DNA of 64,000 nt from an uncultured Acidobacteriota bacterium (GCA_963836075.1 CAWIIB010000001.1:1824001-1888000), one strand, 5' to 3'. Positions 8,164 to 62,263 are shown, counted from the first letter of the stretch. Program-made: numbers and translations. Notes: generated by a model from the letters alone, not told the origin.

Positions 8164-10698
8164 CTACTTCGAAGTGCCCACGATGTAGCAGGCGGAGCTG
8201 TCGGTGTCGCCCGCCGGCGGGTAGGGCGGCTGGTTGTACGGGCTGGCCGTGGTGTCCATGGCCAGCAGGGTGAAGACGTTGGTTCCCACCAGCGAACCGA
8301 GCGACGGCAGGTTTGTGTTCCAGGAGGTGTTGAAGACGCCGCCGGCGGCGACGTTGGTGTACCCCGCCCGCCAGCCGCCAATGTAGAGGCCGCCGGCGAG
8401 GTTGATGTTGATCCGCCCCGAGATGGTCCGGGTGAACCCGCCGTACAGGTTCTCCAGGGTGACATACATCGAGGTGGTGAAGGGCAGCACCCCGCTGTCC
8501 GGTATGCAGGCCATGGTGGCGCTCACCGTGTCGGTGATATCGGACGAGGTGGTGGCGCAGGCCGCCGATCCGTAAGCTGTCTCGATACCGTCCCCGTTGC
8601 GGGCCTTGACCCGGAAGCAGTACTGGACACCGGACGTCAGCCCCTGGGCGGCAATGGTGCCCCAGGCGGCGTCGGTCCGCCAGACCTCAGCGGCGCTGGG
8701 GTTCCCGGCCGCGTCCACAAAGCGGTTGAGCCAGGTCCCGTCAGCGGTGGAGGAGCACTGGATGGCGAACACGGTTCCCGAGGGGTTGCCGTTGGCGTTG
8801 ACGTTGATGTTCAGGGTGGAGGTGGTGGGGCCGTTCACCGTTGGGGTCGCCGGCGTGTTGGCCAGGGTGTAGGCCGATGCCGAACTGCTCCAGCTGGTCT
8901 CGTTGGGTGTGGCGGCACTGTCCCGGGCCTGCACCTGGTAGGAGTAGCTGGTGTTCACGGCCAGGCCGCCCTGGGAGAAGGTACGCGAACTCTGCCAGGC
9001 GCTGTTGCCGTTGAAGCTGGAGTTGAAGCGATACTCCACCGGCGGCGAAGCGGCGTCGGTGGCGGTGACGCAGAGCATGGAGAGCGAGGTGGTGCCGGTG
9101 GCGTAGGGCACGGTGGTCCACTGCATGGGGTTCGGCGTGGGCGGTGTGGTGTCGCCGCCGCCGCTGGTCACCGTGATGGTGTAGTCCTCCACCTCGCCGT
9201 AGCTGGTGGAGCCGCAGGCATACGGGGTCGGGTCGTATTCTCCGTCCATGATCCGCACCCGCATCCGGGTGGCGCCCAGCGCGGCCCCGCCCGGCGGGGT
9301 AACGGTGACGGTGTACGGCCCGAGGCCGATCCAGCTGGTGGTGATGGTTTCGCCGGCGTCATCGAAGTCCTCGTCCTGGTTCCAGTCGACCCACATCCCC
9401 CCGATGTCGGTAGGCCATTCGGTGTTGAGGGTGATCGTCGTCAGGTAGCCGCCGCCGATGTTCATCTCGGTGGACTGGCCGGTGTAGTCGCTGTACCCCG
9501 AGGCGCCGCTGCTGTTGTCAATGGTTCCCATCTGGACCCGCTCGATGTACTCATAGGACGAGCTGCTGGAGCTGGCCGAGCAGTAGCCCCCGCCTCCCCC
9601 TCCGCAGAGCGAATCGCGGGCCGCCTCGAAGGCCGAGAGGTCGATGCGGGTGGCGTAGTTCTCGCAGGAGAAGGAGCAGTGGGTGATGATGCCGATGATC
9701 TCGTCGTTCTTCAGCAGCGCCGAGCCGGAGTTGCCGTAGGTCATGTCGAGGTCGAAGCCGTAGTAGGTGCTGGTGCGGTAGAGGACGTCGCCGCTGTGCG
9801 TCTGCTGCACCTGGCTGCGGGTGGGGTCGCTGTTGTCCACGCCGTAGCCCCAGTTGTCACAGGGGTCGCCGGAGTTGGCCAGGGCGGCGGCGATGGGCCG
9901 CATCTCCCCGTAGCGCTCGTAGGGCGTCTGGCCCAGGTTGTTTGTGCCCACGGTCATCACCGCCCAGTCGGCGCCCACGCCGTTGTTGACGAACTGGTGC
10001 GCGGTGATCGGGAACTGGTCGGCCACCGGCGGGTTGTAGGTATAGCAGCTGGAGGAGGAGGCGGGCACGTTGAACTGCAGCGTGTCGTCGTAATTGCCGT
10101 CGGCGCAGTGGCCGGCGGATACGACGCAGCTGTCTTCAGAGACGATGGACCCGGTGCAGCCCACCGGCACGATCCGCCCGCACCAGAGTTCGCTGGACAG
10201 GGAACGGTTGTCAGCGCCGCAGATGCCGCAGTCGTCATCGGCGCAGGGCCCGCGGGTCACCTCGACGATGTGCACCGACACCCGGTCGATCACCACCCGG
10301 TTCTTTTCGGTGCCGGGCCAGGCGATCAGCTCGAGGTAAACCTCATTGCCGTTGAAGTAGGCCGAGGTGTAGTTCCACATCGCCAGGGCATCGGCGTCCA
10401 GCTCCTGCACTTCGCCGTCAAAGAGCGAGGTCATCCGGATCAGGCTGCCCTCATCCAGCTTGACCTTGCCGAAGTAGAGCCGCATCCAGGCGGCATCCTT
10501 TACCGTGATCAGCTCCTCGAAGGCGATCTCCGGCTGGGGGCCCCGGTTGGCCAGCACGCCGCTGTCCAGTTCATAGGTTTTGAACTCACCAGTGGGCCAG
10601 TCCAGCGTCGACTGGGCCGCAGCCGGCACCGAAACGGCGGCACAGAGCAGGCCGACCAGCAACACGTTAACCAATCCTCTTCGAATGCTCAGGTCCAT
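8164..10698 (-). CDS. Secreted trypsin-like (S1) serine protease with GEVED domain, FN3-like domains and C-terminal NQPPY-GDTD domain
   Basis: Signal peptide; catalytic motifs SAGHC, DWAV and GNSGS; YGEVEDYTITV; FN3-like YSYQVQARD and YCFRVKARN. Confidence 0.85.
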   Translation of the reverse strand: MDLSIRRGLVNVLLVGLLCAAVSVPAAAQSTLDWPTGEFKTYELDSGVLANRGPQPEIAFEELITVKDAAWMRLYFGKVKLDEGSLIRMTSLFDGEVQELDADALAMWNYTSAYFNGNEVYLELIAWPGTEKNRVVIDRVSVHIVEVTRGPCADDDCGICGADNRSLSSELWCGRIVPVGCTGSIVSEDSCVVSAGHCADGNYDDTLQFNVPASSSSCYTYNPPVADQFPITAHQFVNNGVGADWAVMTVGTNNLGQTPYERYGEMRPIAAALANSGDPCDNWGYGVDNSDPTRSQVQQTHSGDVLYRTSTYYGFDLDMTYGNSGSALLKNDEIIGIITHCSFSCENYATRIDLSAFEAARDSLCGGGGGGYCSASSSSSSYEYIERVQMGTIDNSSGASGYSDYTGQSTEMNIGGGYLTTITLNTEWPTDIGGMWVDWNQDEDFDDAGETITTSWIGLGPYTVTVTPPGGAALGATRMRVRIMDGEYDPTPYACGSTSYGEVEDYTITVTSGGGDTTPPTPNPMQWTTVPYATGTTSLSMLCVTATDAASPPVEYRFNSSFNGNSAWQSSRTFSQGGLAVNTSYSYQVQARDSAATPNETSWSSSASAYTLANTPATPTVNGPTTSTLNINVNANGNPSGTVFAIQCSSTADGTWLNRFVDAAGNPSAAEVWRTDAAWGTIAAQGLTSGVQYCFRVKARNGDGIETAYGSAACATTSSDITDTVSATMACIPDSGVLPFTTSMYVTLENLYGGFTRTISGRININLAGGLYIGGWRAGYTNVAAGGVFNTSWNTNLPSLGSLVGTNVFTLLAMDTTASPYNQPPYPPAGDTDSSACYIVGTSK

Positions 10699-10940
10699 GG
10701 TTCTCGAGACCTCCAGAAATTTGTGATAGACAGGGCGGCGAATACACTTACGGGACCGTCCAACCCACTCTGTTCGGAAAGCGATGGCTTCATCGAAAAA
10801 CAGAAGCGGCGGCCGGAAAGCTGGAAAAAGTGGCCGGATCTCACGGCGTCAAATTCCCGCTTACTTGCCACTAATATAGGGAAATAGCCGTGATTCCGTC
10901 AAGTTGACAGGAAAACAGGTGAGAAGAGCCGGCAGCGACG

Positions 10941-12029: not shown

Positions 12030-12193
12030 GGTCCCCCCCCGTTCGGTGGCCTTGATCAATGAACGGAACAACTATAGCCCAAAACCTGTTTCCTGAGAAT
12101 TGACGTGTTTATTTTCACGTTGCCGCACGGTCGGTCGTTGGACAGTATGAAGCCGGAAGCAGTTCCGCTCCCGGCGTAAGGGAGGACAGGAAA

Positions 12194-22124: not shown

Positions 22125-25100
22125 CTAGAACCTCCCGGCGGCCACAGTGGCGCCCTCGGTCAGCCCGGCAAAACTCTCCATCGCGGCCCAGGAGGTGACC
22201 TGACTGCCGTCGTAGCTGAAGACCGACACCGTGGTGCCGGCCGCCGGGTCCGGGCCCAGGCCGGCCACGATCTCGTCCCGGCCGTCGCCGTCCAGGTCGG
22301 CCCGGGCGCTGACCTTTGCCCCGAAGCGGTTCTCCGGCCAAGAGAAGGCGAAGAAGCTGAGGCCGGGCAGCGGGCTGATCCCGCTGCCGTCATGGTTCCA
22401 GCCGCGGACGTGGGCGCCGAAGACCGATCCCGGCCCGGGGCCGGTGACGATCTCGTCGATGCCGTCGCCGTCCACGTCGCCGCAGGTGACATTGACGCCG
22501 AACTGGTTCGTGCTGTAAGCGAAGAAGCTCACCGCGGAGATGGCCGTTGCGACGCCGCCGTCCACGTTCCAGCCCCGCACGTGGGGGCCGTAGACCGTGC
22601 CCGGACCGGCGCCGGTGACGATCTCGTCGTAGCCGTCGCCGTCGATGTCGCCGCTGCAGACGTTGACCCCCCACTTGGGGGTGCCGTAGGCGAAGTAGTT
22701 CACCCCGGACAGCGATGTCACCCCGGATCCGCCGTCATAGTCCCAGCCCCGCACGTGGGGCCCGAACACCGCGCCGGGGCCGGCGCCGGTGATGATCTCG
22801 TCGAAGCCGTCGCCGTCGATGTCGCCGGCAGCGGCGTTCACCCCGTACTTGTTGGTGCCGTAGGCCAGGAAACTGAGGCCGGGCAGCGGCGTGCCGTCGA
22901 GAGCGAAGCCGCGCACGTGGGGCCCGTAGATCGCCCCCGGACCGGCGCCGGTGAGGATCTCGTCCAGGTCGTCACCGTCCAGGTCGCCGGCAGCCACGTT
23001 GACTCCGTAGCCGTCGGCGCCGTACGCCGCGAACTCGTAGAGGTGCACCGCACCGTTCTCCGGCGGGAAGACCCGCACGTCGGGCGGGTTGGCCGCGGCC
23101 GGGCCGGGGCCGGTGATCACCCGCGGCGCGCTCAGGTCGCCGCCCGGCTCATAGAGCGGGCGCTCGTAGACGCCGTTGCCGTGGGTCGCCGCGCGGAGCA
23201 GCCGGCCCGGGGCGAAGACCTTGAGGTCGTTGATCATCGCCGGCCCCATCCCTTCCTGAAAGCGGTACCAGGTCTGACCGCTGTCCGGGGAGACGTAGAC
23301 CCCCAGGTCGCCGCCGACATAGACCACCTGCGGGTAGAGCGGGTCGACGATCACCGCCGAGGTGGGGATGTCGGGCAGGCCCTGGCCGATGTCGCTCCAC
23401 GTGTCACCGCCGTCGACGCTGCGGAAGACATGGCTGGTGCCGTAGCCCATGATGGTGGCGTAGACCACACTGCTGTCGGTGGGGTCCACGGCAAGATCGG
23501 AAATGTAGCGGTCGGGCAGACTGCCGGTGATCTCCTCCCAGTTGTTCCCGTTTATCGTGCGATAGAGACGAGGCCGGTCGTCATAGGCCGCGGTGGCGGC
23601 GAAGACCACGTTTTCATTGGAGGCGGACATATCCATGCAGATCGCCGGGTTGTCGCGGTTCAGCGGCTCCCCGCCATGGGTGGCCTCCCAGTCCCAACCG
23701 CCATTGGTGCTTTTGTAGACATGACACCGCCCGCCGTACAGCACGTCGGGATTGGAGGGGCTGAGCACGTAAGGGGCGATGAAGGCGTACGTTTCACCGC
23801 CGGTCACCGGCGGGTAGATCAGATTCCAGTAAGCACCGTCGTTTGAGGTGCGGTAGAGGTAGAGATACTGCCCCGAGTAATAAAAGATGTCGTCATCCTG
23901 CTGGTTCACAGCGGCCCAGGCTCCGTCCATGCCCTGCCACCGCTCCCAAGGCAGCTGGCCGCGGTAGCAGGCCGAGCCGTTGTCCTGCATCCCGCCGACG
24001 ATCTTGTCCCGGTCGGTGGCCGACATGGCCAGGCCGTTGTAAAACTGGGAGGTGACCAGGCCGCCGTTCAGGCTCTCGAAGGTGTCTCCTCCGTCGGTGG
24101 TCTTGAAGATCCCGCCGTCACCGGCGAAGAAGACGGTGTCCGGGTCGGTGGGATGCCAGAGGGCGGCATGCTGGTCGCTGTGGACATAGTGCGGGCCGCC
24201 AATGGGCCCCTCCGGCGGCGGCGTGCCGCTGAAAAACGAGGACCCGTCGCTGATTTCCGTCAGCGTTGCCCCCCCGTCGGTGGAGCGGTGGACCGCGATG
24301 CCGCCGGTGAAGAGGGTGTTCGCCTCGTGGGGGCTGGGCAACACGTAGTGCGAGTAGAAACCCTGCCACAACTGGTAGTCGGTGGCATTGACCTGCTGCC
24401 AGGTTTGACCGTTGTCGGTGGAGCGGAACAGCCCGAGGCCGTCCTCCGAGTTGGCGATGCTGGCATAGACCCGGTTGGGGGCCACGGGTGACAGGCCCAG
24501 TTTCGTCTTGCCGGTCCAGGAGACGGGAAGTCCGCTGGTCAGTTCGGCCCAGCTGCCGCCGCCGTCGGTGGAGCGGTAGATCCCCTGGCCCTCGGAGCCG
24601 AAGTTGCCGTGGGCGCTGAATACGGTGTCGGGATTGGTGGGGTGGATCCGCACGTCGGTGCCCATGATCACGTCGTGCACGAGGGTCCAGTCGCCGCCGG
24701 CATTGGTCGACTTGTAGATCCCCTCGGTGGTGGCGGCATAGACGATGTTCGAGTCGTCGGGGTGGATGGCGATCATCCAGACCCCGCGGTTCTGGTCGTA
24801 CGTCCAGTCGAGGCTCGAAGACCAGTTGGCCCCGCCGTCACTACTCTTGAGAATGCCGATGCCGTAGCTGCCGCGGGTCAGGCGGTTCAGCTCGCCGCCG
24901 TCGGAAGTCTGGTAGCGGTAGGCCTCACCGGTGCCGATATAGATCACGTCGCTGTCGGCGGGATCGAGGGCCACGGTGGCCACCGCCAGGACGGGGTAAC
25001 CCGTCTCCACCCGGTTCCAGGCATCGGCCCCCACCCCGCCCGTGGTGGACTTCCACAGCCCGCCGCTGGCGCTGCCGGCGTAGATGATCTGGGGATTGTC

Positions 25101-25424
25101 GGGGTCCACCGCCAGACACAGGGTGCGGCCGCCGATGTTGTTCGGACCGAGGCTGGTCCAGGCATCGTCGCCTCGGCCATCAGTTCCAGCGACCCGGGGC
25201 ATCCGCTTCGAATGCTGCCAGGCTCTGACATATCCATCCGCCGGAATGATCTTCCCGGGATAGGCTCGCTGGGCGGCCCAGGCATCGAGGGCCTGCATGG
25301 CTCCGCTGGGCCCATGTCCACCACTTTTTCCCCCGCTGCCAGCCGGTGGTAGAAGGAAGGCCAGGGCCACGGCAGTCAGAACCGCCGTCACCGCCCACAG
25401 GTGTCCGTCACTCATGCGTCTCAT
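22125..25424 (-). CDS. Secreted BNR/Asp-box (VPS10/glycosyl-hydrolase-like) propeller protein with C-terminal FG-GAP module, copy 1
   Basis: ATG 25424 with RBS GGGGAGG; many SxDGGxxW boxes; five GDxDGDG-type repeats; ends GATVAAGRF. Confidence 0.88.
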   Translation of the reverse strand: MRRMSDGHLWAVTAVLTAVALAFLLPPAGSGGKSGGHGPSGAMQALDAWAAQRAYPGKIIPADGYVRAWQHSKRMPRVAGTDGRGDDAWTSLGPNNIGGRTLCLAVDPDNPQIIYAGSASGGLWKSTTGGVGADAWNRVETGYPVLAVATVALDPADSDVIYIGTGEAYRYQTSDGGELNRLTRGSYGIGILKSSDGGANWSSSLDWTYDQNRGVWMIAIHPDDSNIVYAATTEGIYKSTNAGGDWTLVHDVIMGTDVRIHPTNPDTVFSAHGNFGSEGQGIYRSTDGGGSWAELTSGLPVSWTGKTKLGLSPVAPNRVYASIANSEDGLGLFRSTDNGQTWQQVNATDYQLWQGFYSHYVLPSPHEANTLFTGGIAVHRSTDGGATLTEISDGSSFFSGTPPPEGPIGGPHYVHSDQHAALWHPTDPDTVFFAGDGGIFKTTDGGDTFESLNGGLVTSQFYNGLAMSATDRDKIVGGMQDNGSACYRGQLPWERWQGMDGAWAAVNQQDDDIFYYSGQYLYLYRTSNDGAYWNLIYPPVTGGETYAFIAPYVLSPSNPDVLYGGRCHVYKSTNGGWDWEATHGGEPLNRDNPAICMDMSASNENVVFAATAAYDDRPRLYRTINGNNWEEITGSLPDRYISDLAVDPTDSSVVYATIMGYGTSHVFRSVDGGDTWSDIGQGLPDIPTSAVIVDPLYPQVVYVGGDLGVYVSPDSGQTWYRFQEGMGPAMINDLKVFAPGRLLRAATHGNGVYERPLYEPGGDLSAPRVITGPGPAAANPPDVRVFPPENGAVHLYEFAAYGADGYGVNVAAGDLDGDDLDEILTGAGPGAIYGPHVRGFALDGTPLPGLSFLAYGTNKYGVNAAAGDIDGDGFDEIITGAGPGAVFGPHVRGWDYDGGSGVTSLSGVNYFAYGTPKWGVNVCSGDIDGDGYDEIVTGAGPGTVYGPHVRGWNVDGGVATAISAVSFFAYSTNQFGVNVTCGDVDGDGIDEIVTGPGPGSVFGAHVRGWNHDGSGISPLPGLSFFAFSWPENRFGAKVSARADLDGDGRDEIVAGLGPDPAAGTTVSVFSYDGSQVTSWAAMESFAGLTEGATVAAGRF

Positions 25425-25511
25425 GGTCGCCCCTCCCCTGTTTTCAATAATGGCGGATCTATACCACGTATTGTAGCCGTACGAACCGGGGAATGTTTCC
25501 GGAAATTGTTT

Positions 25512-25585
25512 GGGGACGTACATGAATTTATGACTTTTTCTGAATGTGCGATCTAAGAAAAAGTCATAAATTCATGTACGTCCCC
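25512..25585. repeat. AT-rich palindromic element, copy 2 (30-bp perfect arms)
   Basis: Identical to copy 1 except one loop base and the outermost G; offset 3470 bp. Confidence 0.95.
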
Positions 25586-25594: not shown

Positions 25595-28500
25595 CTAGAA
25601 CCTCCCGGCGGCCACGGTGGCGCCCTCGGTCAGCCCGGCAAAGCTCTCCAGGGTGGCCCAGGAGGTGACCTGGCTGCCGTCGTAGTTGAAGACCGACACA
25701 GTGGTGCCGGCCGCCGGGTCCGGGCCCAGGCCGGCCACGATCTCGTCCCGGCCGTCGCCGTCCAGGTCGACCCGGGCGCTGACGTTGGCGCCAAAGCGGT
25801 TCTCCGGCCAGGAGAAGGCAAAGAAGCTGAGGCCGGGCAGCGGGCTGATCCCGCTGCCGTCATGGTTCCAGCCGCGGACGTGGGCGCCGAAAACCGATCC
25901 CGGCCCGGGGCCGGTGACGATCTCGTCGATGCCGTCGCCGTCCACGTCGCCGCAGGTGACATTGACGCCGAACTGGTTCGTGCTGTAAGCGAAGAAGCTC
26001 ACCGCGGAGATGGCCGTTGCGACGCCGCCGTCCACGTTCCAGCCCCGCACGTGGGGGCCGTAGACCGTGCCCGGACCGGCGCCGGTGACGATCTCGTCGT
26101 AGCCGTCGCCGTCGATGTCGCCGCTGCAGACGTTGACCCCCCACTTGGGGGTGCCGTAGGCGAAGTAGTTCACCCCGGACAGCGATGTCACCCCGGATCC
26201 GCCGTCGTAGTCCCAGCCCCGCACGTGGGGCCCGAACACCGCACCGGGACCGGCGCCGGTGATGATCTCGTTGAAGCCGTCGCCGTCGATGTCGCCGGCG
26301 GCGACGTTCACCCCGTACTTGTTGGTGCCGTAGGCCAGGAAGTTGAGCCCGGGCAGCGGCGTCCCGTCTACGGCAAAACCGCGCACGTGGGGCCCGTAGA
26401 TCGCCCCCGGGCCGGCGCCGGTGATGATCTCGTCCAGGTCGTCACCGTCCAGGTCGCCGGCGGCCACGTTCACCCCGTAGCCGTCGGCGCCGTACGCCGC
26501 GAACTCGTAGAGATGCACCGCACCGTTCTCCGGCGGGAAGACCCGCACGTCGGGCGGGTTGGCCGCGGCCGGGCCGGGGCCGGTGATGACCCGCGGCGAA
26601 CTGAGATCACCGCCCGGCTCGTAAAGCGGCCGTTCGAACACGCCGTTGCCGTGGGTCGCCGCACGCAGCAGCCGGCCCGGGGCGAAGACCTTGAGGTCGT
26701 TGATCATTGCCGGCCCCATGCCCTCCTGGAAACTGTACCAGGCCTGACCGCTGTCCGGGGAGACGTAGACCCCCAGGTCGCCGCCGACATAGACCACCTG
26801 CGGGTGGAGCGGGTCGACGATCACCGCCGAGGTGGGGATGTCGGGCAGGCCCTGGCCGATGTCACTCCAGCTGTCGCCGCCGTTCGAACTGCGGAAGACA
26901 TGGCTGGTGCCGTAGCCCATGATGGTGGCGTAGACCACGCTGCTGTCGGTGGGGTCCACGGCGAGGTCCGTGATGTAGCGGTCGGGCAGACTGCCGGTGA
27001 CCTCCTGGAAGGTGTCGCCGTTGGTGGTGCGGTAGACCCGCGCCCGGTCGGTGTTCGCCGCTGTGGCCACGTAGACCACGTTCTCGTCGGTGTCGGAGAT
27101 GGCCATGCACATCGCCGGGTTGACGCCGTTCAGTGTGCTGCCGCCGTGGATGGAGCTCCAGCCACTGCCGCCGTTGGTGCTCTTGTAGACCCGGGAGCGG
27201 CCGGCGTAGAGCAGGTCGGGACTGGAGGGGCTGAGCACGTAGGGGGCGATGAAGGCGGTGTTCTCTCCACCGCTCGAGGGCGGTTCAATCCAGTCCCAGT
27301 AACCGGAATCGTTGGTGGTGCGAAGCATTTGGAGATACTGCGCCGAACCGTAAAGGATGTTGTCGTTCTGCGGATTCACCGCGGCCCAGGAACCGTCGCC
27401 GCCGATCACCCGCTCCCAGGCCGGGCCGCCGCGGTAGATGGCGGTGGCGGTGTCCTGCATGCCGCCGATCAGCTTGTCCCGGCTGGTGGCCGACAGGCCC
27501 ACGCCGTTGTAGAACTGGGTGGTGATGTAGCCGCCGATCAGGCTTTCGAAAGTGGTGCCCCCATCGGTGCTCTTGAACACGCCGCCATCGGAGGCGAAAA
27601 AGATGGTGTTCGGGTCGGTGGGGTGCCAGGTGGCGTTATGCTGATCGGCGTGGGCGTAATCGGAACCACCGATGGGTCCTTCCGGGGGCGGTGTCCCGAA
27701 ATACATGCTGGTCCAATCCGACCGCCGGGAGAAAGAGCTCCCGCCGTTGGTGGAGCGGTGGATCTCGATGCCGGCCACGAAGACCAGGTTCACGTCAAAG
27801 GGGCTGGGCAGCACATAATGCGAGTAAAAGCCCTGGTATTGCTGGTAGTCATAGGAATAGGCCTGCGACCAGGTATCGCCGGTGTCGGTGGAACGCCAGA
27901 GCCCGCGGCCCGACTCGGTATTGCCGATGCTGGCATAGATCCGGTTGGGCTGCGGCAAGGTGATCGCCAGCTGGGTCTTGCCGCTCCAGGAAGCGGGCAG
28001 CCCGCTGGTCAGCCTGGTCCAGGACGTGCCACCGTTGGTGGTGCGGTAGATCCCGTGACCCTCGGAACCGAAGTTGCCGTGGGCGCTGAACACGGTGTCG
28101 GGATTGGTGGGGTGGATCCGCACATCGGTGCCCATGATCACGTCGTGCACCAGGGTCCAGTCGCCGCCGGCATTGGTCGACTTGTAGATCCCCTCGGTGG
28201 TGGCGGCATAGACAATGTTCGAATCGGTGGGGTGGACAGCGATCATCCAGATTCCGCGGTTCTGGTCGTAGCTCCAGTCGAGGCTGTGGGACCAGCTGGC
28301 CCCGCCATCACTGCTCTTGAGGATTCCGATACCGTAGCTGCCGCGGGTCAGACGGTTCAGCTCGCCGCCGTCGGAGCCCTGGTAGCGGTAGACCTCGCCG
28401 GTGCCGATGTAGATCACGCTGCTGTCGGCGGGATCGAGGGTCACACTGCTCACCGCCAGGATGGGGAAACCGGTCTCCACCCGGTCCCAGGCGTCGGCAC

Positions 28501-28895
28501 CCACCCCGCCCATGGTGGTCTTCCACAGGCCGCCGCTGGCGCTGCCGGCATAAATGATCTGCGGATCGGTGGGATCAACCGCCAGGCTGAGGGTGCGGCC
28601 GCCGATGTTGAACGGCCCGAGGACGCTCCAGGGGTCGGCGCCGCGGCCGTCGGTGGCCTGTACCCGGGGATATGCGCCGTGACTGCTGCCAGGCCCGGGC
28701 AAACCCGCCGGCAGGGATCACCTTGCCGGGATAGGCCCGCTGGGCCGCCCAGAGGTCCAGCGCCTGCAGGGCGCCGCTGTATTTTTCCAGCGGCTGCTCC
28801 TTCTCCCCACCGGCCGGAGGCAGCAGGAACACCAGGGCCACAAAGGTCAGAATTGCCGTGGCCGTCCACAAACGCCCGTCACTCACGCGTATCAT
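25595..28895 (-). pseudogene. BNR propeller plus FG-GAP protein, copy 2, interrupted by a +1 frameshift near 28670 (or a sequencing error)
   Basis: ORF 28575-28895 matches the copy 1 N-terminus and ORF 25595-28702 matches the remainder. The span is 3301 bp versus 3300 bp for copy 1. Confidence 0.8.
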
Positions 28896-42462: not shown

Positions 42463-42671
42463 ACGACTGGTCGAAAACTCGCACTGATCCTGCGACAGGC
42501 CATCGATCCCGTCGATGACGGACTACGCAAACAGGATCCAGGGAGGCCGAGTCTTGCGTGGACACGTGCTGAAACTGCCTCAACCACGCCCCGGAGGGGC
42601 GGTAGTCCGTCCGGGGCGCGACACAGCAGTATGCGAACCCGCGTGAAGCTGCTTACGGTAGTACCAGTTGT
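42463..42671 (+). ncRNA. Candidate structured RNA or 5' leader element, family unassigned
   Basis: 9-bp closing stem, several internal stems and a 10-nt long-range complement, between A/C-rich linkers. Confidence 0.55.
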
Positions 42672-42711
42672 CACCACATTTCATACCAAGACAAAAACAA
42701 TGAGGGAGAAA

Positions 42712-44719
42712 ATGAGAAAGCTCGGATCCATGAGCCCCTTTAACGGCATCCTCCTCACCCTGATCTTCTTCTTGGTCACCGGCTGTTTCGCCGCCACCCA
42801 GGTTGCACTGGCAGAAAGCGGATCAGGCGTTGTCACGCCTTCGGTCTCGGCGACCGAGACCGCGAGCAATACGCCCCTCCCGCCGTCAGCTTCCACGGTG
42901 CAGGTAAAGAGAAGTGCCCATGCCGAAGAGCTGCACGCAGCGCGTCTGGCCGGCGATCTGGCGGCGGTACAGGCCCTGGAAGCCTCAGCGTCAATCCAGC
43001 CTGCCGTTGGCGAGAATTGCGGTCAGCCCGCACTGCGCACAAGCGGCGCCGTCTGCGGATCCGGCGAACCACAGGTGACGGCCACCTCGAACAGGAAAGC
43101 CGCTGCCCCGTCAGACGGAGATCGGGCGACCTTCGGCGCGGATATTAAGGTGAGAACGAGCGACTACGACACCATGGAGATCAATCCCTCCATGGCTTCC
43201 GATTCGGACGGCAATCTCTACGCGGCCTTCCAGACCGATCTCTCCACCACCGGCTACTTCTACATCCAGCTGTACAGGTCCATCGACGGCGGCGTTACGT
43301 GGGATGGATACGGATTCGTGCTCGCCACGGACACTCACCTGCTGACCCCCTCCATCGCCATCGGTGAGGGGACCGCGGATACGCTGCTCCTGGCCTACAT
43401 CGTTGACGATGGATCGAGCACCCCCTACCCTGAAGTGGCCACCGCTCCACTGGGATCAAGCACCTTCACCATCCAGAAGCGTACCGTACGTCAGCACCTG
43501 GGAAGAGTATGCCAAGCCGGTCATCTGGACCGATGCCTACGAGTATCCGGGTTGGTTTGCCTATCTGACCTGCGAAGGGATCTATGATTCATCGGTCGAC
43601 AATATCAATGTCTGCTTCTGGCGCTCCATCGACTTGGGTGTCACCTGGAACTATCCGGCCAGCGGCGGCCCGGCGGTGATCGGGAATCTGGATGCATTCG
43701 CCTGGCTCGATGCCGACGGCACCTACGGCACGACGCAGAACAGGGTATTCCTCGCCTGTTACAACCAGACCGACAGCACGCTCTACAGCCTGGCCAGTGA
43801 TGATTTCGGCAACAACTGGGACGATACCCTCGACCTGAAGGCCATCAGCACCCTGCCCTACGATCCGTATTATCCCGTTGATCCGGACATCGAGGCGGCC
43901 GTTGCCTACGACCACGTGATGCTGGTCTGCACCCACGACCACGATTTCGACGGCCAGGACGACGACGACGTCGGCCAAACCTATTCCACCGATGCCGGGG
44001 AGACCTGGCCTAATCCGCTGTGGAATCTCAATGGGGCAACGGATGATCACGAATTCGGCGCGGACCTGAACGCCAACGAGGGGGGAGGCAGCTGGCACCT
44101 GACCTACACCCGGTGGGAGACCCCCGTCAACGATCACTTCGTCCAGTACAGCCAGCGCCAGCAGGACCTCGGCGACTACTGGCAGTCCTTCCCGGACGTG
44201 GTGGATGACCTGGCCCTGGCCAGTATCGGCTATTCCAAGAAGGGCATCGCCAGCAACTGGTCCACCGACGTGGCGGGAATCTGCTGGGCCGACTACCGGG
44301 ACGGCACACCCGACTACGACCTTTATTTCGACTACGACCGGGGGGGGGCGTCGGGGCCCACGGTGGCCTGTAGCTATTCCTGCAGCCCGAGCTCCGGCCA
44401 GCTGCCCTTCAGCACCCAGATGACCGTGAACATGACCAACCTCTACACCGGTTTCACCCGCACCATTTCCGGACGGATCAATATCAGTACCGCCGGCGGC
44501 GGATACATCAGCAATTGGCGCGCGGGATTCACCAACATCCCGGCCGGTGGAACCTTCACCAGATCCTGGAACCAAAACCTCCCCGCCCTGGGAGCACTAT
44601 ACGGAACCAACTACTTCTACATCTACGCCATGGACACCACCGCGAGCCCGTATAACCAGCCGCCATACCCCGCCTCGGGGGATACGGATATCGCAACCTG
44701 TCTTATCGTGGGGAACTGA
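42712..44719 (+). pseudogene. Secreted BNR/sialidase-like propeller protein with C-terminal NQPPY-GDTD domain, split by a +1 frameshift at ~43477 (or a sequencing error)
   Basis: RBS GAGGGAG and signal peptide; Asp-boxes in both ORF halves (RSIDGGVTW, RSIDLGVTW, STDAGETW). Removing one A from cagAagc joins them; the span is 2008 bp (3n+1). Confidence 0.78.
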
Positions 44720-44960: not shown

Positions 44961-46328
44961 CTAGAAATTCCAGCTCAACTGGACGCTGAGGATATCCACC
45001 GACGCCTTGTATTCGCCGTGTATCGCGCCGCGGGTCACTTCCTCGGACGCCACACCCTCCTTGTGGATCCCGGCATTGGAAACCATGATGTGGGCGTAAC
45101 CACCGCTCAGCGCGAAGGCATCGTTGATCCGGTACGTGGTGCCCAGGGTCAGCCACCAGCGGTCGTTGCCCGGCACGCGAACCGTGCGCAGCGAGGGGTT
45201 GGGAATGGGCGACTGGTCATAGGCCGCACCGAAACGCCAGTCCCACTTTTCGCCGGGGGTATAGGTCAGCCCCGAGGCAAGACGCCAGGTGTCGTTCCAG
45301 TCGAGGGTGGTCACCGCGTCGCTGGCGCCGCTGGCGAACTTGATGCGCAGTTCCTCGATGCTGCTCCAGCCGGTCCAGGTCGCATCAGCCATCAGCGCCC
45401 ATTCGTCCGAGAGCGCGTGGAAGACGCTGGCCGAAGCGCTCTGGGGCAGGGTGATGTCAGCCGAGGCCGGCCCGTCCACCAGGCCGGACAGCCCGGCCAG
45501 GATGTCGGTGTACGCATTGGGCGAAGTGAAGTCGGCGTCGCCCTCCAGGTCGTAGTCGATCTCCGAACGGTAGGAGAGCCCGTAGCGGGTCCCTTCCGTC
45601 TGCTCGAAGAGGAAGCCGAAGTTGAAACCGTAGCCGTAATCATCGGCCTCAATCTTCACGAACCCGTCATCACCCTGGGGAGTCAGCGGCAGGCCCGCGC
45701 CGACCAGGGTGTTGATCGTGCCGTAGTCGATGGCGTTGCTGAACGTCCCATCCAGCGCCTGGATATTGATCCCCAGACCCGCCGAGAACTTGTCGGTGAA
45801 TTTGAAGGCCACGGTGGGGTTGAAGTTGACGGTCATCACCTCGGAATCGACACCGTGGTAGCGCCCCTTCCAGTCCTCATCATACTTGGTGGCCAGGCCG
45901 AAGGGAACGTTGATGCCGAGACCGAGGAAAAGCTTCTCGCCAAACTGCCCGCTCCAATAGATATTGGGCACGAGCGTGAAACTGCCGGCATTCCCGCCGT
46001 CACCGCCGGTGAGCGGGATCTCCACCCCAAGCAGCGGGGTGAGCGTGGAACCGTCATCGCTGAACTTGGTTGACGGATTGATGCCGTGGAGGCCGACTTC
46101 AATATTCTGCCCCTTAAGCCGGGTCAGGCCGGCCGGGTTGAAGAAGATGGTGGTGGCGTCCTCGGCCACCGCCGCACCGCCGCCAAAGGCGTTGCCCAGC
46201 CCCCTCACCCCCTGCTCGATCAGCGCGAACCCCGAGGCGCGGGCATCCATTGCGCTGCCCCCGGCCAGCAGGGCCGCAGCGATGATGATCAGAACCAACC
46301 GGCATGAATTCGTCCCTTTTCTCGACAT
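44961..46328 (-). CDS. fadL: Long-chain fatty acid outer-membrane transporter (FadL/OmpP1 family)
   Basis: ASGFALIEQG, GNAFGG, DATTIFFNPAG, PFGL and a C-terminal F. Confidence 0.92.
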   Translation of the reverse strand: MSRKGTNSCRLVLIIIAAALLAGGSAMDARASGFALIEQGVRGLGNAFGGGAAVAEDATTIFFNPAGLTRLKGQNIEVGLHGINPSTKFSDDGSTLTPLLGVEIPLTGGDGGNAGSFTLVPNIYWSGQFGEKLFLGLGINVPFGLATKYDEDWKGRYHGVDSEVMTVNFNPTVAFKFTDKFSAGLGINIQALDGTFSNAIDYGTINTLVGAGLPLTPQGDDGFVKIEADDYGYGFNFGFLFEQTEGTRYGLSYRSEIDYDLEGDADFTSPNAYTDILAGLSGLVDGPASADITLPQSASASVFHALSDEWALMADATWTGWSSIEELRIKFASGASDAVTTLDWNDTWRLASGLTYTPGEKWDWRFGAAYDQSPIPNPSLRTVRVPGNDRWWLTLGTTYRINDAFALSGGYAHIMVSNAGIHKEGVASEEVTRGAIHGEYKASVDILSVQLSWNF

Positions 46329-46572
46329 TGTTCCCCCCTGAATTGTTAAGTTATTAATGATGCCTGCACAGTGCCGCCGCACCGTGCATTCATCCGCCAA
46401 CCGCACGCTACGGCACTCCGGGTTGCCCTCGGTAAAAATGTCTGAAACTGGGACTGCTTACACCAGAATTTTTTGAAATGTAGATGAAACGGGCACTTAT
46501 GTCAAGCGGGGCGGGCCTCCCGGCGGCGCCGGATCAGCGGCGGCGCCGGGAGCGCGTCTGAGGAGGAAATGG

Positions 46573-51450: not shown

Positions 51451-51452
51451 GC

Positions 51453-56454: not shown

Positions 56455-56484
56455 ATTGTTGGGGACATTTGACAGAGGATTGCC

Positions 56485-58014: not shown

Positions 58015-60528
58015 ATGAAGACCGTTCTCCGGATCTTTTTTGTTCTCGCCATGACCGCGGCGGCCATGCTTCCGGCCCAGGCACAGGGCCCCTCCACTGG
58101 GATCGCCGGAGAAGGCCCTGATGGCTACCTGGATGCAGATTTGATCAGACCGGTGTCCGACCAGGATCCTGGTGTTCCCGCCGCCTCGCGCCTGGAGCTG
58201 CCCGGGGACTGGAGCTGGACCTATTACCGCCCGACAAACACCGGCATCCAGGGTGATTGGAGTGGAGCGCTCTGGATCGACCCCGAAGGCGCACCTTATA
58301 TCGCGGCCTACAATCCCTTCTGGGAAGAGGGGGGCCTGGCTCGTTTCATCGAGGCCGAAAACCGCTGGGAGAATTTTTCCAATGTCGACTACCCGGAGAT
58401 CGGGGATCCGGATATCACCGGATCCGCCCGGATCGAGACCATCAGCACCGCCGAGGACGGCTCCCTCTGGATGGTGACCTGGAACTCCGTGCTTCATTTC
58501 GATCCCGACGGCGGGGCGGCCCCCTTCCGGCGTTACGATGAGTTCAACTCCCCCTTGCCGGGCGGCAGGGCCGGAGACATCGGCATCGCACCCGACGGCA
58601 CGGTCTGGAGCGCATGGCAATCGACCAGCGGCGGCGGGGGTCTGGTGCGTCACGATCCGGCCACCGATGACTGGACCGTCTGGGATGCGGTCTCCACCGC
58701 CAACGACTGGCCGGGCTGGGCCCACATCACCCATGCGGCGATCCAGCCGAAACCGGGCGGCGGCTACTACGTTCGGCTGAAAGACACCTTCTACGGTCTT
58801 GCGGTCTTCGACAGCGATACTCAGCTCTTCAGCCTGCTGCCGAGCAGCGGCACACCGGGCGAAATCGGAGGGCTGCTGCACAACAGCGTCGACGAAGCCG
58901 GCAACGCCTGGATGTTCCGGGAGCAGTCCGGCTCGGGTTGGTCCCTGGACTACCGGCGCCCTGACGGCAGCTGGGTGACCCCCCCTGCAGTCTACCCGGC
59001 CTACTATGGACTGACGGCCTTCCAGGCCTTCGGCGACACGCAGGCCCTGATGGTCGCCGCGGGAGCCGAGGTCTGGCACTTCGACGGCCTCAACTGGTCG
59101 AGCCTGGGCGACTGGCCCTCGCTCTCCTCAATCGTGGGGGGACTCGGCATGGATGCAGACGGCAACGTCTGGGTCTCGGGGTCCGGCGGCGCCGCGCGCC
59201 TCGACGCCGGAACCGGCCAGTGGCAGCGCCACCGGATCACCAACTCGTCGCAGATCGACATGTGGGTCCGGGACATCAGTTTCGGGGAAAATGGCGACGT
59301 CTGGGTCACCGGCAACGCCGGTCCGGGCTATGGAGGCTTCGGCGTCTTCGACGGCCTTCGCTGGTACAACTTCAACGATTACACCTACGGCCTGGGCGGT
59401 GACTGGGGCTTCAACACCGACAATACGGACGCCATCACCTATCGCCCGTCCACCGGGGCCGTGGCACTCAATCCCATGTTCAATGGAATCCACGAATGGG
59501 ATGGCTCGGCCTACAAAATGCTCGAGCCCGGATCTCAGATCGACGGCCTCACCGAGGACTCCCTCGGCCGGCTCTGGATCATGGGCAACTACTTCAGCCT
59601 GCGCTACCATGACGGAACCGGCTTCACCGACGTCCCCATCCTGGGCTGGGGCGCCAACGTGGTGCCGGATCCGGACCGGCCGGGCACGGTCTGGGCCTGC
59701 GCCAACGGCGAGGTGGTCCGCACCGATGGCGAGTACCTTTTCTCACGCACGACCAGCGACCTGCCCGAACTGAACCCGCTGCACGACGTCTTCACCACCG
59801 TGGCGGTGGACCGCAACGGCGTGGCCTGGGTCGGCAGCACCGAGGGCCTGTTCCGTCTCGATGCGGAGACCGGCACGCACCAGTGGTGGCACTCGAGCAA
59901 TTCCGCACTGCCCGGCGACCAGGTCACGCCATTGGCGGTGACGCCGGACGGACGAGTGTGGTTCACCAATTTCAACAGTTTCGGCATCGAAGCCTCGCTG
60001 GTCTGGTTCGACGGCAACGAGTTCGGCACGATCACCCGGGACGAGGGCTTGCCTCACGCCCAGATCTACGATGGCGAGGCACGCGCCGTGCCGGGCGGGT
60101 ACGAACTCTGGATCTCCTGCGCCAGCCGCGGCATCGCGGTGCTCAACGTACCCTTCAGCAATACGGTGGCAGCCGGCTACAGCTGCACCCCGGATTCGGG
60201 AACGGTGCCCTTTGCCACCACCATGACCGTCCGACTGGACAACCTGTCACCCGACTCCAACCGCCGGATGGCGGCCCGGCTCGACGCGGCGCTGGCCGGC
60301 GGAATGACCGTCACCGGCTGGCGCAACGGATTCACCAACATCTCCCCCTCGAGCTCGTTCCAGACCTCGTGGAACCAGGCCATTCCGGCCGTCGGCGGTG
60401 TGATCGGCAACAACGTGTTCACCCTCGTCGCCGAGGACGTGACCCCGCCGCCGTTCAACCAGCCGCCGTATCCTCCCGCCGGGGATACGGACAGCGCGGC
60501 CTGCACCGTGACGGGCGTATCGCCATAA
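58015..60528 (+). CDS. Secreted multi-propeller protein (two-component-regulator-propeller-like) with C-terminal NQPPY-GDTD domain
   Basis: Signal peptide; repeated DxxGxxW blades and NSxLP motifs. Confidence 0.85.
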   Translation: MKTVLRIFFVLAMTAAAMLPAQAQGPSTGIAGEGPDGYLDADLIRPVSDQDPGVPAASRLELPGDWSWTYYRPTNTGIQGDWSGALWIDPEGAPYIAAYNPFWEEGGLARFIEAENRWENFSNVDYPEIGDPDITGSARIETISTAEDGSLWMVTWNSVLHFDPDGGAAPFRRYDEFNSPLPGGRAGDIGIAPDGTVWSAWQSTSGGGGLVRHDPATDDWTVWDAVSTANDWPGWAHITHAAIQPKPGGGYYVRLKDTFYGLAVFDSDTQLFSLLPSSGTPGEIGGLLHNSVDEAGNAWMFREQSGSGWSLDYRRPDGSWVTPPAVYPAYYGLTAFQAFGDTQALMVAAGAEVWHFDGLNWSSLGDWPSLSSIVGGLGMDADGNVWVSGSGGAARLDAGTGQWQRHRITNSSQIDMWVRDISFGENGDVWVTGNAGPGYGGFGVFDGLRWYNFNDYTYGLGGDWGFNTDNTDAITYRPSTGAVALNPMFNGIHEWDGSAYKMLEPGSQIDGLTEDSLGRLWIMGNYFSLRYHDGTGFTDVPILGWGANVVPDPDRPGTVWACANGEVVRTDGEYLFSRTTSDLPELNPLHDVFTTVAVDRNGVAWVGSTEGLFRLDAETGTHQWWHSSNSALPGDQVTPLAVTPDGRVWFTNFNSFGIEASLVWFDGNEFGTITRDEGLPHAQIYDGEARAVPGGYELWISCASRGIAVLNVPFSNTVAAGYSCTPDSGTVPFATTMTVRLDNLSPDSNRRMAARLDAALAGGMTVTGWRNGFTNISPSSSFQTSWNQAIPAVGGVIGNNVFTLVAEDVTPPPFNQPPYPPAGDTDSAACTVTGVSP

Positions 60529-60682
60529 GGGAGACATAGTAAACAGACACGTCTCGAGGACGTGAAATCGCTATTGAAGCAAAAGAGAGTAAAACCCGTT
60601 CAACCGATCTTCGTGCGATCCCGGCACTGGCCCTATCGGCCCCGATTGTCCCGATCGCCGACAGTATGAAGGAGTCAGTACC

Positions 60683-62263
60683 ATGCGCACCACCCATTTC
60701 CTTTTCATCGCCATAATGACCGGTCTTGTCGCCATTGCGCCTCCGGCCTGGGGGCAGGTGATCAACGAGGATCTCAAGGTAGTGGGAAGCGGCGGAGCCA
60801 CAGGTGACGAGTTCGGCTATTCCCTCGCCATCGACAACGGCCTCCTCGTCGTGGGGGCGCCCTACAGCGACGACAACGGTCTCGATTCCGGTGCGGCGTA
60901 TCTGTTCCAGGCCTCCACCGGAGCCGAATTGTTCATGCTGACCCCGGCCGACGGCGCGGCGGGAGACGGGTTCGGCTTCTCCGTCGCCATCGCGGGCGGC
61001 ATCGTCGCGGTGGGTACGCCCGGAAAGGGTGACAACGGCGCCGACTCCGGCGCAGCTTACCTGTTCGACGCTTCCACCGGGGCGCAAATCGCCAAACTCC
61101 TGCCCAGCGACGGCGCGGCGGGGGACGAGTTCGGCAATTCAATTGCCATCGATAATGGCATCGTTGCCGTCGGAGCCTGGCGAGCTGACGAGTATGGCGA
61201 CGGCTCTGGCGCGGCGTATCTCTTTGATGCGTCAACGGGGAATCAGCTAGACAAACTGTTGCCGGACACGGGCAACAACTATCAGACCTTCGGCGTATCG
61301 ATCGCCATGGACGCCGGGATCGTTGCCATCGGAGCGCGTACATACTTTGTCCTTGGTGAGGGCTATACCTTTGCCAAAGCGTATCTGTTCGATGTGTCTT
61401 CGGGGAATCAGCTCAACGTGCTTCAGGCGGATATCGAGAACTACAACGGAGATCTGGGTGGCCAGTTCGCCGATAGCATCGATATCGATAACGGCTTGGT
61501 CGCCGTGGGAGCTCCGTTCAGGAGCGTCTTCTTCGACTTCTCTGGCGCTGCATACATATTTGATGCCTCGACGGGAGAGCAACTCCACTTCATCTTCCCC
61601 GCCGACGGCCACGACCGGGACCACTTCGGCGCCTCGATTTCCATCGACAACGGCGTCCTTGCGATTGGTGCGGATGAGGACGACGACAGCGCCTGGAGCG
61701 CCGGCTCCGCGTATCTCTATGACGCCGCCGACTTCACGCTGATCGACAAGCTCCTCGTGAGCGACGGGGCGGAATTCGATCTCTTCGGATCTTCCATTGC
61801 CATCGACAACGGCCTTGTTGCTGCCGGGGCGATTGGTTTTGGAGGCAGCGGAACCGAGACAGGTTACGTGGGCGTGTTTTTTGCACAGCCCACGACCACC
61901 GTCTCCGCCTCGCTGAACTGCCTGCCGTCCTCGGGCATGGTGCCCTTTGCCACCACCATGACCGTGCAGCTGGAGAACCAGTCCCCTGACTCCACCCGCC
62001 GGGTGGCGGCAAAGCTCAATGCCGCGCTGGCCGGCGGGCAGACCGTCGCCGGCTGGCGCAGCGGGTACACCAACATCGCCCCCTCGGGCTCGTTCCAGGC
62101 CTCGTGGAACCAGGTCATCCCGGCTGTCGGCGGTGTGATCGGCATCAACGTCTTTACCATCGTTGCCGAGGACGTTACCCCCGCACCGTTCAATCAGCCG
62201 CCGTACTCTGCCGCCGGGGATACGGACAACGCGGCCTGCACCGTGACGGGCCTGGCTCCCTGA
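60683..62263 (+). CDS. Secreted integrin-type FG-GAP repeat protein with C-terminal NQPPY-GDTD domain
   Basis: RBS AAGGAG; signal peptide; seven FGxSxAID...VGA...GAAYLF-type repeats. Confidence 0.88.
   Translation: MRTTHFLFIAIMTGLVAIAPPAWGQVINEDLKVVGSGGATGDEFGYSLAIDNGLLVVGAPYSDDNGLDSGAAYLFQASTGAELFMLTPADGAAGDGFGFSVAIAGGIVAVGTPGKGDNGADSGAAYLFDASTGAQIAKLLPSDGAAGDEFGNSIAIDNGIVAVGAWRADEYGDGSGAAYLFDASTGNQLDKLLPDTGNNYQTFGVSIAMDAGIVAIGARTYFVLGEGYTFAKAYLFDVSSGNQLNVLQADIENYNGDLGGQFADSIDIDNGLVAVGAPFRSVFFDFSGAAYIFDASTGEQLHFIFPADGHDRDHFGASISIDNGVLAIGADEDDDSAWSAGSAYLYDAADFTLIDKLLVSDGAEFDLFGSSIAIDNGLVAAGAIGFGGSGTETGYVGVFFAQPTTTVSASLNCLPSSGMVPFATTMTVQLENQSPDSTRRVAAKLNAALAGGQTVAGWRSGYTNIAPSGSFQASWNQVIPAVGGVIGINVFTIVAEDVTPAPFNQPPYSAAGDTDNAACTVTGLAP

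Follow-up and report, generated by a model that had tools for sequence, protein, structure and literature searches.

Introduction

C-terminal tags on cargo proteins define whole secretion and surface-display systems, among them the type IX secretion system (T9SS), cellulosomes and the exosortase systems. Here we describe a C-terminal domain (CTD) of about 120 residues that ends four genes in a 64,000-nucleotide stretch (the window, with coordinates counted from its first letter) of the genome of an uncultured, soil-type Acidobacteriota bacterium (the host genome, G000). Proteins that end in this domain or contain it are called carriers. The domain belongs to no catalogued family, lies on about 4% of the genes in a deep-branching genus of this phylum, and, in a genome without a detectable T9SS, takes the exact place of T9SS-type tags found on related enzymes.

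Several C-terminal modules of exported proteins are well described. The type A CTDs of the T9SS are immunoglobulin (Ig)-like sandwiches represented by PF18962 (Por_Secre_tail) and, for the FlgD_ig type, by PF13860. They occur in a single copy at the C terminus of signal-peptide cargo of many enzyme classes, and a genome may contain tens to hundreds of them. Dockerins (PF00404), including the GC-type dockerins of Phycisphaerales, are small calcium-binding helical modules; with cohesins (PF00963) as the other half of the system, they attach diverse exoenzymes to a common receptor. PEP-CTERM, LPXTG and transmembrane (TM) tail signals combine a short motif with a TM helix and a basic cluster. Soli_cterm (NCBIfam TIGR03437), likewise C-terminal and uncharacterised, has undergone massive expansion in one acidobacterial lineage, and is presumably the phylum's analogue of such tags. 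A "choice of anchor" pattern is known for sorting signals, as in the choice-of-anchor families of NCBIfam.

Finding the receptor or machine that reads the new domain would show by what means these bacteria put their very large set of exoenzymes to work. The reach of the finding is limited by the narrow distribution of the domain, which is essentially that of one genus, and by the fact that the organism is uncultured.

Four genes in the window end in the same domain

The four copies of the CTD in the window align without gaps, have pairwise identities of 50-66%, and share 45 invariant columns. The invariant positions include a start of the form C-P-x-S-G-x-x-P-F, the motifs W-R-x-G-[YF]-T-N and S-W-N, and a loop with the pattern P-[YF]-N-Q-P-P-Y...G-D-T-D. 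When a profile of the four copies was searched against the genome, each copy was recovered at E ~1e-66, far beyond chance. The initial annotation had described one domain at the end of four genes with unrelated N-terminal parts, and both points were borne out: all four translate as described and run to the stop codon, and the Pfam matches upstream of the CTD are Trypsin_2, GEVED and fn3 in the first gene, a weak BNR match in the second, Reg_prop in the third and FG-GAP_2 in the fourth.

Carrier gene 1 (8164-10698, minus strand; 844 residues) encodes a signal peptide, a trypsin-like peptidase, GEVED (8e-20) and FN3 domains, the Trypsin_2 and fn3 matches being weak, and CTD copy 1 (8164-8529, minus strand; 121 residues plus stop; genome search E 1.9e-66). 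Carrier gene 3 (58015-60528, plus strand; 837 residues) has a signal peptide, a Reg_prop-type beta-propeller region (1.1e-10) and CTD copy 3 (60163-60528, plus strand; 121 residues plus stop; E 2.7e-66). In carrier gene 4 (60683-62263, plus strand; 526 residues), a signal peptide and seven FG-GAP_2 repeats (7.9e-68) precede CTD copy 4 (61898-62263, plus strand; 121 residues plus stop; E 4.9e-66). The signal peptides at the starts of these three translations are clear.

Carrier gene 2 is distributed over two overlapping open reading frames (ORFs). Its 3' fragment (43364-44719, plus strand) contains the remainder of a propeller and CTD copy 2 (44360-44719, plus strand; 119 residues plus stop; E 2.2e-65); this ORF has neither its own start nor a signal peptide, and its initial ~45 residues look out of frame. 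The upstream 5' fragment (42631-43587, plus strand), in which Pfam found no match, opens with a hydrophobic stretch resembling a signal peptide, continues with the first part of a BNR-like propeller and loses the frame near its 3' end. Because the upstream ORF supplies the signal peptide and the propeller start, the two are, on the reading frames, one gene split by a frameshift, which may be an assembly indel rather than the mark of a pseudogene. The earlier statement that all four domains sit on signal-peptide proteins thus stands for genes 1, 3 and 4; the CTD-bearing ORF of gene 2 itself does not have one, and its signal peptide lies on the split-off 5' ORF.

Copy number and sequence rules in the host genome

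A hidden Markov model (HMM) of the four copies was used to search every stop-to-stop ORF of 80 residues or more in the host genome (6.23 Mb, 10 contigs, 64% GC), at a domain E-value below 1e-5. The CTD was found in 209 ORFs and on approximately 4% of the proteins, a number far above the guess that had been made from the four window copies. In 196 of the 209, the domain ends no more than 10 residues from the stop codon. The 13 exceptions are mostly truncated or frameshifted, with one mid-ORF occurrence, and one ORF has two copies. The C-terminal, single-copy rule proposed from the window therefore extends to the genome, internal copies being rare both here (13/209) and in the database (4 of the 239 listed proteins discussed below). 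Signal peptides were called with a crude heuristic, which detected a signal-peptide-like start in 140 of the 196 C-terminal carriers. The remaining 56 have no such start, and many of them begin with residues that look out of frame, as in gene 2. Co-occurrence with signal peptides thus holds genome-wide as far as the heuristic goes, many of the other carriers appearing to be frameshift-split. This suggests that indels are frequent among carriers, whether as assembly errors or in pseudogenes.

The boundaries of the domain are sharp. Among 173 full-length copies, 152 open with Thr at position 1; the residue at position -1 is in most cases Ser, Asp or Gly, and no long linker precedes the domain. 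The commonest endings are IAP, VAP and MAP followed directly by the stop codon, within a conserved [IVLM]-A-P-stop pattern. A 16-residue loop is nearly invariant over more than 170 paralogues. The two cysteines near the ends of the domain, described as invariant in the initial annotation, are so within the four window copies and not genome-wide: 108 of the 173 full-length copies have exactly two Cys residues, 25 have three, 21 have one and 15 have none.

Family catalogues and predicted fold

Neither the four copies nor the four full-length proteins matched anything in Pfam or NCBIfam at E<=1. A set of 32 CTD copies found no relevant Pfam family even at E<=10, and the sole match of the 32-copy profile to PDB sequences (E 0.56) was irrelevant. 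The parts of the full-text literature that were accessible contained nothing relevant on the NQPPY motif, or on such a domain, sorting signals or T9SS CTDs in Acidobacteriota. The CTD is therefore a new, uncatalogued domain family, as had been suspected, with no described family matched in Pfam, NCBIfam or PDB.

An AlphaFold2 model computed from the 32-copy alignment has a mean pLDDT of 96.3 and a pTM of 0.85. The CTD is confidently predicted to fold as an eight-strand Ig-like sandwich; the model is all-beta with no TM helix, in agreement with the beta-sandwich first proposed from the sequence. Residues 93-108, which contain the P-Y-N-Q-P-P-Y-P-P-A-G-D-T-D motif, are the 16-residue loop and connect the last two strands. 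Cys8 is located in the first strand of the model and Cys114 in the last, and a disulfide between them is plausible.

The best fold match was RbmA, a biofilm scaffold protein of Vibrio cholerae (PDB 4be5/4kkq; FnIII-type; Z 12.2, rmsd 2.6, 105 residues aligned). CARDB (3idu) scored Z 10.1 (rmsd 2.4, 98 aligned), and other matches included the Ig domain of AlkC (Z 11.3), PKD (Z 9.6), transglutaminase barrels and macroglobulin MG domains. Since 78 of 48,161 chains reach Z>=8 with Ig/FnIII-type sandwiches, the match is generic and the fold alone says little. In a protein-language-model atlas, the nearest clusters were CARDB (PF07705); the score of 0.88 falls under the 0.9 line, so that this match is a lead only. 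The CARDB HMM did not match any of the 32 CTD copies at E<=10, nor was there an HMM match to an RbmA-type family, and CARDB domains are usually internal or repeated rather than terminal tags.

Comparison with known C-terminal tags

The CTD resembles the type A CTDs of the T9SS in being a C-terminal, single-copy Ig-like sandwich on Sec-exported cargo of many enzyme classes (as judged from the census, the signal-peptide heuristic and the model), in its copy number per genome, and in occupying the identical slot on homologous cargo. It differs from them in its length of ~120 residues, its eight strands, its long invariant loop, the near absence of a linker and its occasional tandem copies. PF18962 and TIGR04183 found no match at E<=1 in the four CTDs and four full proteins, and none at E<=10 in the 32 copies. 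In hhalign comparisons with two alignments of T9SS CTDs taken from close cargo homologues, the CTD scored probabilities of 3.1% and 0.2%, vs 86.8% for a T9SS-vs-T9SS control. A PF18962 search of the whole genome gave one sub-threshold match elsewhere and no canonical Por_Secre_tail above cut-off. We therefore rejected, at the sequence level, the possibility that the CTD is a divergent T9SS CTD.

The T9SS machinery was not found either. No PorV was detected in the genome by NF033710 or PF19572, and the PF19572 control was positive in Bacteroides thetaiotaomicron. SprA (TIGR04189, PF14349) and GldM (TIGR03517) were found neither here nor in 201 genomes of the phylum, with controls that were silent as well. 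Sixteen of the largest ORFs, including all four of at least 2000 residues, were scanned directly with hmmscan; they include two TamB-POTRA-Omp85 fusions, a giant C25 peptidase and a giant S8 peptidase, and none is SprA. Because the SprA and GldM controls were silent, the absence of the T9SS rests mainly on the PorV control and on the scan of the largest ORFs.

Dockerins are the second obvious comparison, as C-terminal modules that fill the same slot in homologues of both cargo families described below. The new CTD differs in being all-beta in the model and has no dockerin HMM match; true dockerins are found on 8 other ORFs of the genome, and the genus has 8-12 classical dockerin ORFs per genome. 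The Soli_cterm model, with its 225 positions, has no match to the CTD or anywhere in this genome, and at least 49 copies occur in a relative, G016. PEP-CTERM, LPXTG and TM-tail signals are different in kind from a 120-residue all-beta domain that ends in [IVLM]AP, and a regular expression for PEP-CTERM-like tails found 0 cases among the called genes. The view that the CTD is none of PEP-CTERM, LPXTG, T9SS CTD or dockerin thus agrees with the lack of an HMM match and of a TM tail. Dockerins, in turn, are numerous in two genomes of family f17 (33 ORFs in G017 and 50 in G035). With Soli_cterm in G016, dockerins in f17 and the CTD in the host genus, expansion of a C-terminal domain recurs in the phylum, and different lineages each expand a different one.

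The CTD replaces known sorting tags on homologous cargo

If the CTD is a tag, close homologues of its cargo might carry other tags in its place. Two cargo families were examined in this respect, each with a query that excluded the CTD, and the best 120 homologues were listed. For the FG-GAP_2 family, the query was residues 25-400 of window gene 4. PF18962 and/or PF13860 lie at the CTD slot in 20 of these 120 homologues, at cargo identities of 63-78%; a dockerin (PF00404) is present in 5 and the new CTD in 2, and one homologue is named at its source as a GC-type dockerin-anchored protein. The similarity of the cargo extends to the CTD boundary and ends there, with a linker of ~17 residues in a T9SS-tagged homologue and ~5 in gene 4.

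For the second family, the query was residues 30-465 of an M28 peptidase carrier of the host genome (P0046). Nine of the best 120 listed homologues have the new CTD (cargo identity 65-100%) and 91 have PF13860 with or without PF18962 (cargo identity 45-65%); several of the PF13860-tagged proteins are named by NCBI as belonging to metagenome-assembled genomes (MAGs) of Candidatus Krumholzibacteria. At least four unannotated homologues visibly end in a PNPFNP...KLNL-type domain, one has a dockerin-like repeat at its end, and two end in a hydrophobic helix and a basic tail. On close relatives of two unrelated kinds of cargo, the place of the CTD is thus taken by T9SS-type CTDs, dockerins or TM tails, which makes the CTD a genuine choice-of-anchor tag. 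A near-threshold choice_anch_J match lies just ahead of the CTD in another carrier of the host genome, P0102. The tag interpretation offered in the initial annotation, by analogy with T9SS CTDs and dockerins, is supported by this substitution, and the CTD is probably a new address label for exported proteins.

The carriers listed have diverse precomputed Pfam assignments, for some of which the family names given here are presumed. Among the peptidases are M28, S8, C25 and C1 families. Other enzymes include a GH5-type cellulase, beta-helix/pectate-lyase-like proteins, GDSL and PAF-AH-type lipases and metallophosphatases, and further carriers are arylsulfotransferase-like proteins, CotH/LTD proteins, glucose dehydrogenase-like propellers, BNR/sialidase proteins and proteins with FG-GAP/VCBS repeats. 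By these assignments, the cargo is an exoenzyme and adhesin repertoire.

To compare the evolution of tag and cargo, we used 51 ortholog-like pairs between the host genome and the loci of its congeners, in which the cargo is at least 50% identical over at least 80% of its last 300 residues. The median identity was 75.2% for the CTD vs 81.5% for the cargo, and the CTD was the better conserved part in only 11 of the 51 pairs. Certain pairs combine a cargo identity of 84-91% with a CTD identity of just 52-71%, which suggests that CTDs have been exchanged between genes. Since the CTD is less conserved than its cargo and such mismatched pairs exist, the tag is generic rather than cargo-specific. A compact, interchangeable tag of 120 residues with a confidently predicted fold might also serve as a display handle.

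Distribution across genomes

Across 401 evenly sampled genomes of the phylum, the CTD occurs in all three genomes of the host genus (including G000) and in none of the 398 others. A set of 41 relatives was also assembled, consisting of the three CTD-bearing congeners (including G000) and 38 genomes without the CTD; one of them, the unpublished G024, enters only the tallies over these 41 genomes. Every non-congener in this set is related to the host at no closer level than the same phylum, so the genus is phylogenetically isolated within the sample.

A scan of a species-level genome collection for the pattern P[YF]NQPPYP hit four MAG records, one of them titled as an Acidobacteriota MAG. Two of the records, G403 (at least 138 matches) and G404 (at least 112), have match coordinates that coincide with those of the congeners G026 and G007, and were therefore not counted as additional lineages; these two congeners have more than 100 CTD matches each. 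G402, titled Candidatus Sulfomarinibacteraceae MAG, has 3 matches, one of which is on a 4.2-kb contig, and G401, a MAG of ~1 Mb, has 2. In a representative library of 1.84 billion proteins, the CTD profile matched 500 proteins at E<=1e-3 and 370 at E<=1e-30. Among the matches listed were 239 carriers, in which the CTD is C-terminal in 235 and single-copy in 225. Eight have a direct C-terminal tandem of two CTDs, five belong to a family of ~1040 residues with an internal diverged copy and a terminal one, and one has a partial second copy. Overall, the CTD is confined essentially to one genus.

The two carriers in G401 (L093:1810-3357, plus strand, and L111:1498-3096, minus strand) lie on contigs with a GC content of 34-39% and are built like window gene 4: they are FG-GAP repeat proteins, of 515 and 532 residues, with signal peptides and a terminal CTD. 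Their cargo is 40-45% identical to many homologues and no closer to the host genus than to other FG-GAP_2 proteins. A search of this MAG for Omp85 gave no match and 0 first-look candidates; the same search was positive in all seven diderm controls and gave 10 matches in G000.

Search for partner machinery

In the search for a specific partner, every candidate tested proved either phylum-wide or tied to another context. Among 4356 crudely called genes of the host genome, 170 are carriers, and 63 of these have another carrier within two genes. No neighbour family was consistently associated with carriers after N-terminal halves of split carriers had been discounted. A conserved operon partner was accordingly rejected: the enriched neighbours were largely such halves, or their arrangement was inconsistent.

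A sortase-like partner was sought with the PorU model, which has 22 matches in the genome; at least five of these ORFs also carry the CTD. The best match is a C25 peptidase (C1:1027241-1029985; 201.7 bits vs a cut-off of 420), a signal-peptide protein that lacks the CTD. It lies in an operon (C1:1026742-1032534, minus strand; L107:9743-15535) with genes for an HprK-related kinase A-like protein and a PqqD/radical-SAM/SPASM enzyme on one side and an S24/S26-type peptidase on the other. By its gene content, this operon looks like an exported-peptide maturation system in the manner of ribosomally synthesized and post-translationally modified peptides (RiPPs), and the C25 peptidase was set aside as a CTD sortase on account of this context and its lack of a CTD. 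The giant C25 protein of the genome (C1:1561828-1568115, minus strand; L116; 2096 residues) has a C25 propeptide, a peptidase domain, and Ig-like, CarboxypepD_reg, BACON_2 and FG-GAP domains. Window gene 3 was considered as a PorZ analogue and rejected, its local match being 16.9 bits vs a cut-off of 260.

The genus has two secretins, one in a pilMNOPQ cluster and one in a cluster of the type II secretion system (T2SS) type that also contains a T2SSE/MshEN ATPase, T2SSF, PilM- and PilN-like genes and two prepilin-type genes. The T2SS-type secretin (C1:2169994-2172495, minus strand; L132:9995-12496; 834 residues) consists of TPR, FecR_C, Secretin_N and Secretin domains behind a lipoprotein-like signal peptide, followed by an acidic Gly/Asp/Glu linker of ~85 residues and a C-terminal cohesin (PF00963, 33.5 bits, cut-off 24.1). 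No paper on secretins with a cohesin domain in type II secretion was found in the accessible part of the full-text literature. The cohesin tail, mostly at the end of ORFs of 750-970 residues, is present in 24 of the 41 genomes; 21 of these belong to the 38 that have no CTD. A complex prediction for the cohesin module and the CTD gave a score of 0.00 and a mark of 0.32, which counts neither for nor against binding. As the tail is phylum-wide and its link to the CTD unsupported, this module was rejected as the CTD receptor. The genus's classical dockerins could be its partners; dockerins occur in 21 of the 41 genomes and coincide with the cohesin tail in 13, with 12.3 expected by chance. A second cohesin-like module, 30% identical to that of the secretin, is encoded by an ORF of ~278 residues (C1:1016984-1017820, minus strand) and has counterparts in the congeners.

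Two further candidates were rejected on their distribution. TamB, POTRA and Omp85 domains are fused in two single ORFs of ~2180 residues (C9:2267510-2274076 and C9:1011951-1018484; L114 and L115), which were considered as a CTD translocon; full-length counterparts of 2100-2700 residues occur in at least seven other, CTD-less genomes of the phylum. Genes for TMEM260-like GT-C glycosyltransferases are present in 16 of the 41 genomes, and as 13 of these are among the 38 that lack the CTD, their co-occurrence with it is not specific. Each genome of the genus has 2-4 of them, and the other 38 genomes have 0-3, with one in most of those having any.

Docking, export and other explanations

Our tentative preference is for the CTD as a lineage-specific, interchangeable C-terminal address tag that docks its cargo on the cell surface or in a matrix after general export. 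According to this model, Sec would export the precursor by means of its N-terminal signal peptide, and the CTD would fold once in the periplasm, in most cases with a disulfide tying its first strand to its last. A general route, for which the T2SS-type cluster is at hand in the genome, would then take the protein across the outer membrane. Outside, the CTD would keep it attached to the cell surface or the matrix by docking non-covalently, through its nearly invariant W-R-x-G-Y-T-N / P-[YF]-N-Q-P-P-Y-P-x-x-G-D-T-D region, to a receptor that would be a lineage-specific protein or glycan. We lean toward docking over an export signal for several reasons: eight of the 239 listed carriers have direct tandem CTDs, as binding modules often do; two CTD proteins occur in G401, where the Omp85 search gave no match; the search for a genus-specific translocon was negative, and the genome has a T2SS-type cluster; adhesion and matrix Ig domains (RbmA and CARDB, with CARDB also nearest in the atlas) come closest in fold; and dockerins, which are anchoring tags, fill the same slot in homologues. 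A number of observations weigh on the other side. None of the candidates tested emerged as a receptor, and most of the slot-equivalent tags are CTDs of the T9SS, which serve for export rather than anchoring. The strict single terminal copy and the [IVLM]-A-P-stop ending would suit a recognition signal no less than a binding module, and the tandem forms are a small minority. The folds matched are generic Ig sandwiches, the absence of the T9SS leans on one positive control and the scan of the largest ORFs, and the lack of an outer membrane in G401, a MAG that may be incomplete, is only a possibility.

A somewhat unlikely but serious alternative is that the CTD is itself an export signal. Once folded in the periplasm, it would be read by an outer-membrane pathway for translocation or attachment that has so far gone unrecognised and does the work of the T9SS in this lineage, or it would direct the protein to the T2SS-type secretin; it might then be cleaved off. 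T9SS CTDs at the same slot in 91 of the 120 best listed M28 homologues and 20 of the 120 FG-GAP_2 homologues speak for this explanation, as do the strictly C-terminal single copy in 196 of 209 ORFs, the sharp start with Thr1 in 152 of 173 copies and small residues at -1, the conserved A-P-stop end, a tagged fraction of genes similar to that of T9SS cargo sets, and a CTD that evolves faster than its cargo, as signal domains do. As parts of the T9SS were not found, some other route must carry ~200 exoproteins, which also speaks for an export signal. It is difficult to reconcile with the failure to find a genus-specific outer-membrane machine, given the cohesin-tailed secretin in 24 of 41 genomes and the TamB-POTRA-Omp85 fusions in at least seven CTD-less relatives, and with the RiPP-like setting of the PorU-like peptidase, the existence of tandem CTDs, and the other signal-peptide FG-GAP and sortilin proteins of the window that are untagged. 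The two carriers in G401 also count against it; if that organism truly has no outer membrane, the CTD is not an outer-membrane translocation signal there. A stronger version appears unlikely, in which a so far undescribed outer-membrane pathway for export and attachment has taken over from the T9SS in a lineage that lacks it, and recognises its cargo by the CTD. In one form of it, a universal folded targeting domain would be read by a T2SS-type secretin, and would then be the first clear cis-acting signal for such a channel; the G401 copies could in that case be a borrowed tag for docking on such cells.

Rather improbable, in our judgement, is that the CTD has no dedicated partner and is an ordinary CARDB-like Ig module (a stabiliser, spacer, or substrate or particle binder) that was spread by 3' domain shuffling in one lineage, its C-terminal position reflecting the mode of copying and not sorting. 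Such a module would account for the generic sandwich with its many matches at Z 8-12 and the CARDB clusters nearest in the atlas, for the absence of a partner in the neighbourhood and co-occurrence tests, and for the presence of the CTD on just two proteins in an unrelated small genome (G401). Ig spacers, however, are usually internal and repeated, whereas the CTD is terminal in 235 and single in 225 of the 239 listed carriers, and it replaces known sorting tags exactly at their slot in two cargo families. The loop of 16 residues, nearly invariant in more than 170 paralogues, also argues against this explanation, as it suggests one common ligand. Finally, the CTD might be a folded acceptor for periplasmic O-glycosylation by the genome's GT-C glycosyltransferases, in the way that TMTC and TMEM260 act on cadherin and IPT Ig-like domains in animals. 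The near-invariant Thr and Ser positions (T1, T58, S69, T94 and T109) and the 2-4 TMEM260-like genes per genome in the genus, vs 0-3 elsewhere, agree with such a handle; with TMEM260-like genes in 16 of 41 genomes and 13 of 38 CTD-less ones, there is no specific co-occurrence, and we regard this explanation as very improbable.

Neighbouring genes in the window

Two genes directly follow carriers in the window, and the relationship is one of adjacency only. A Toluene_X outer-membrane barrel of the FadL/TodX family (44964-46406, minus strand; E 5.8e-102) lies after carrier gene 2, and a Wzy_C membrane protein of the O-antigen-ligase family (62343-63995, minus strand) after carrier gene 4. The window also encodes three large FG-GAP or Sortilin-Vps10 plus FG-GAP proteins without the CTD (5952-7649, 22128-25523 and 25598-28702, all on the minus strand). 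The protein encoded at 5952-7649 has a clear signal peptide, and those at 22128-25523 and 25598-28702 are close paralogues. All three close with a similar FG-GAP repeat that ends in G-x-F and the stop codon.

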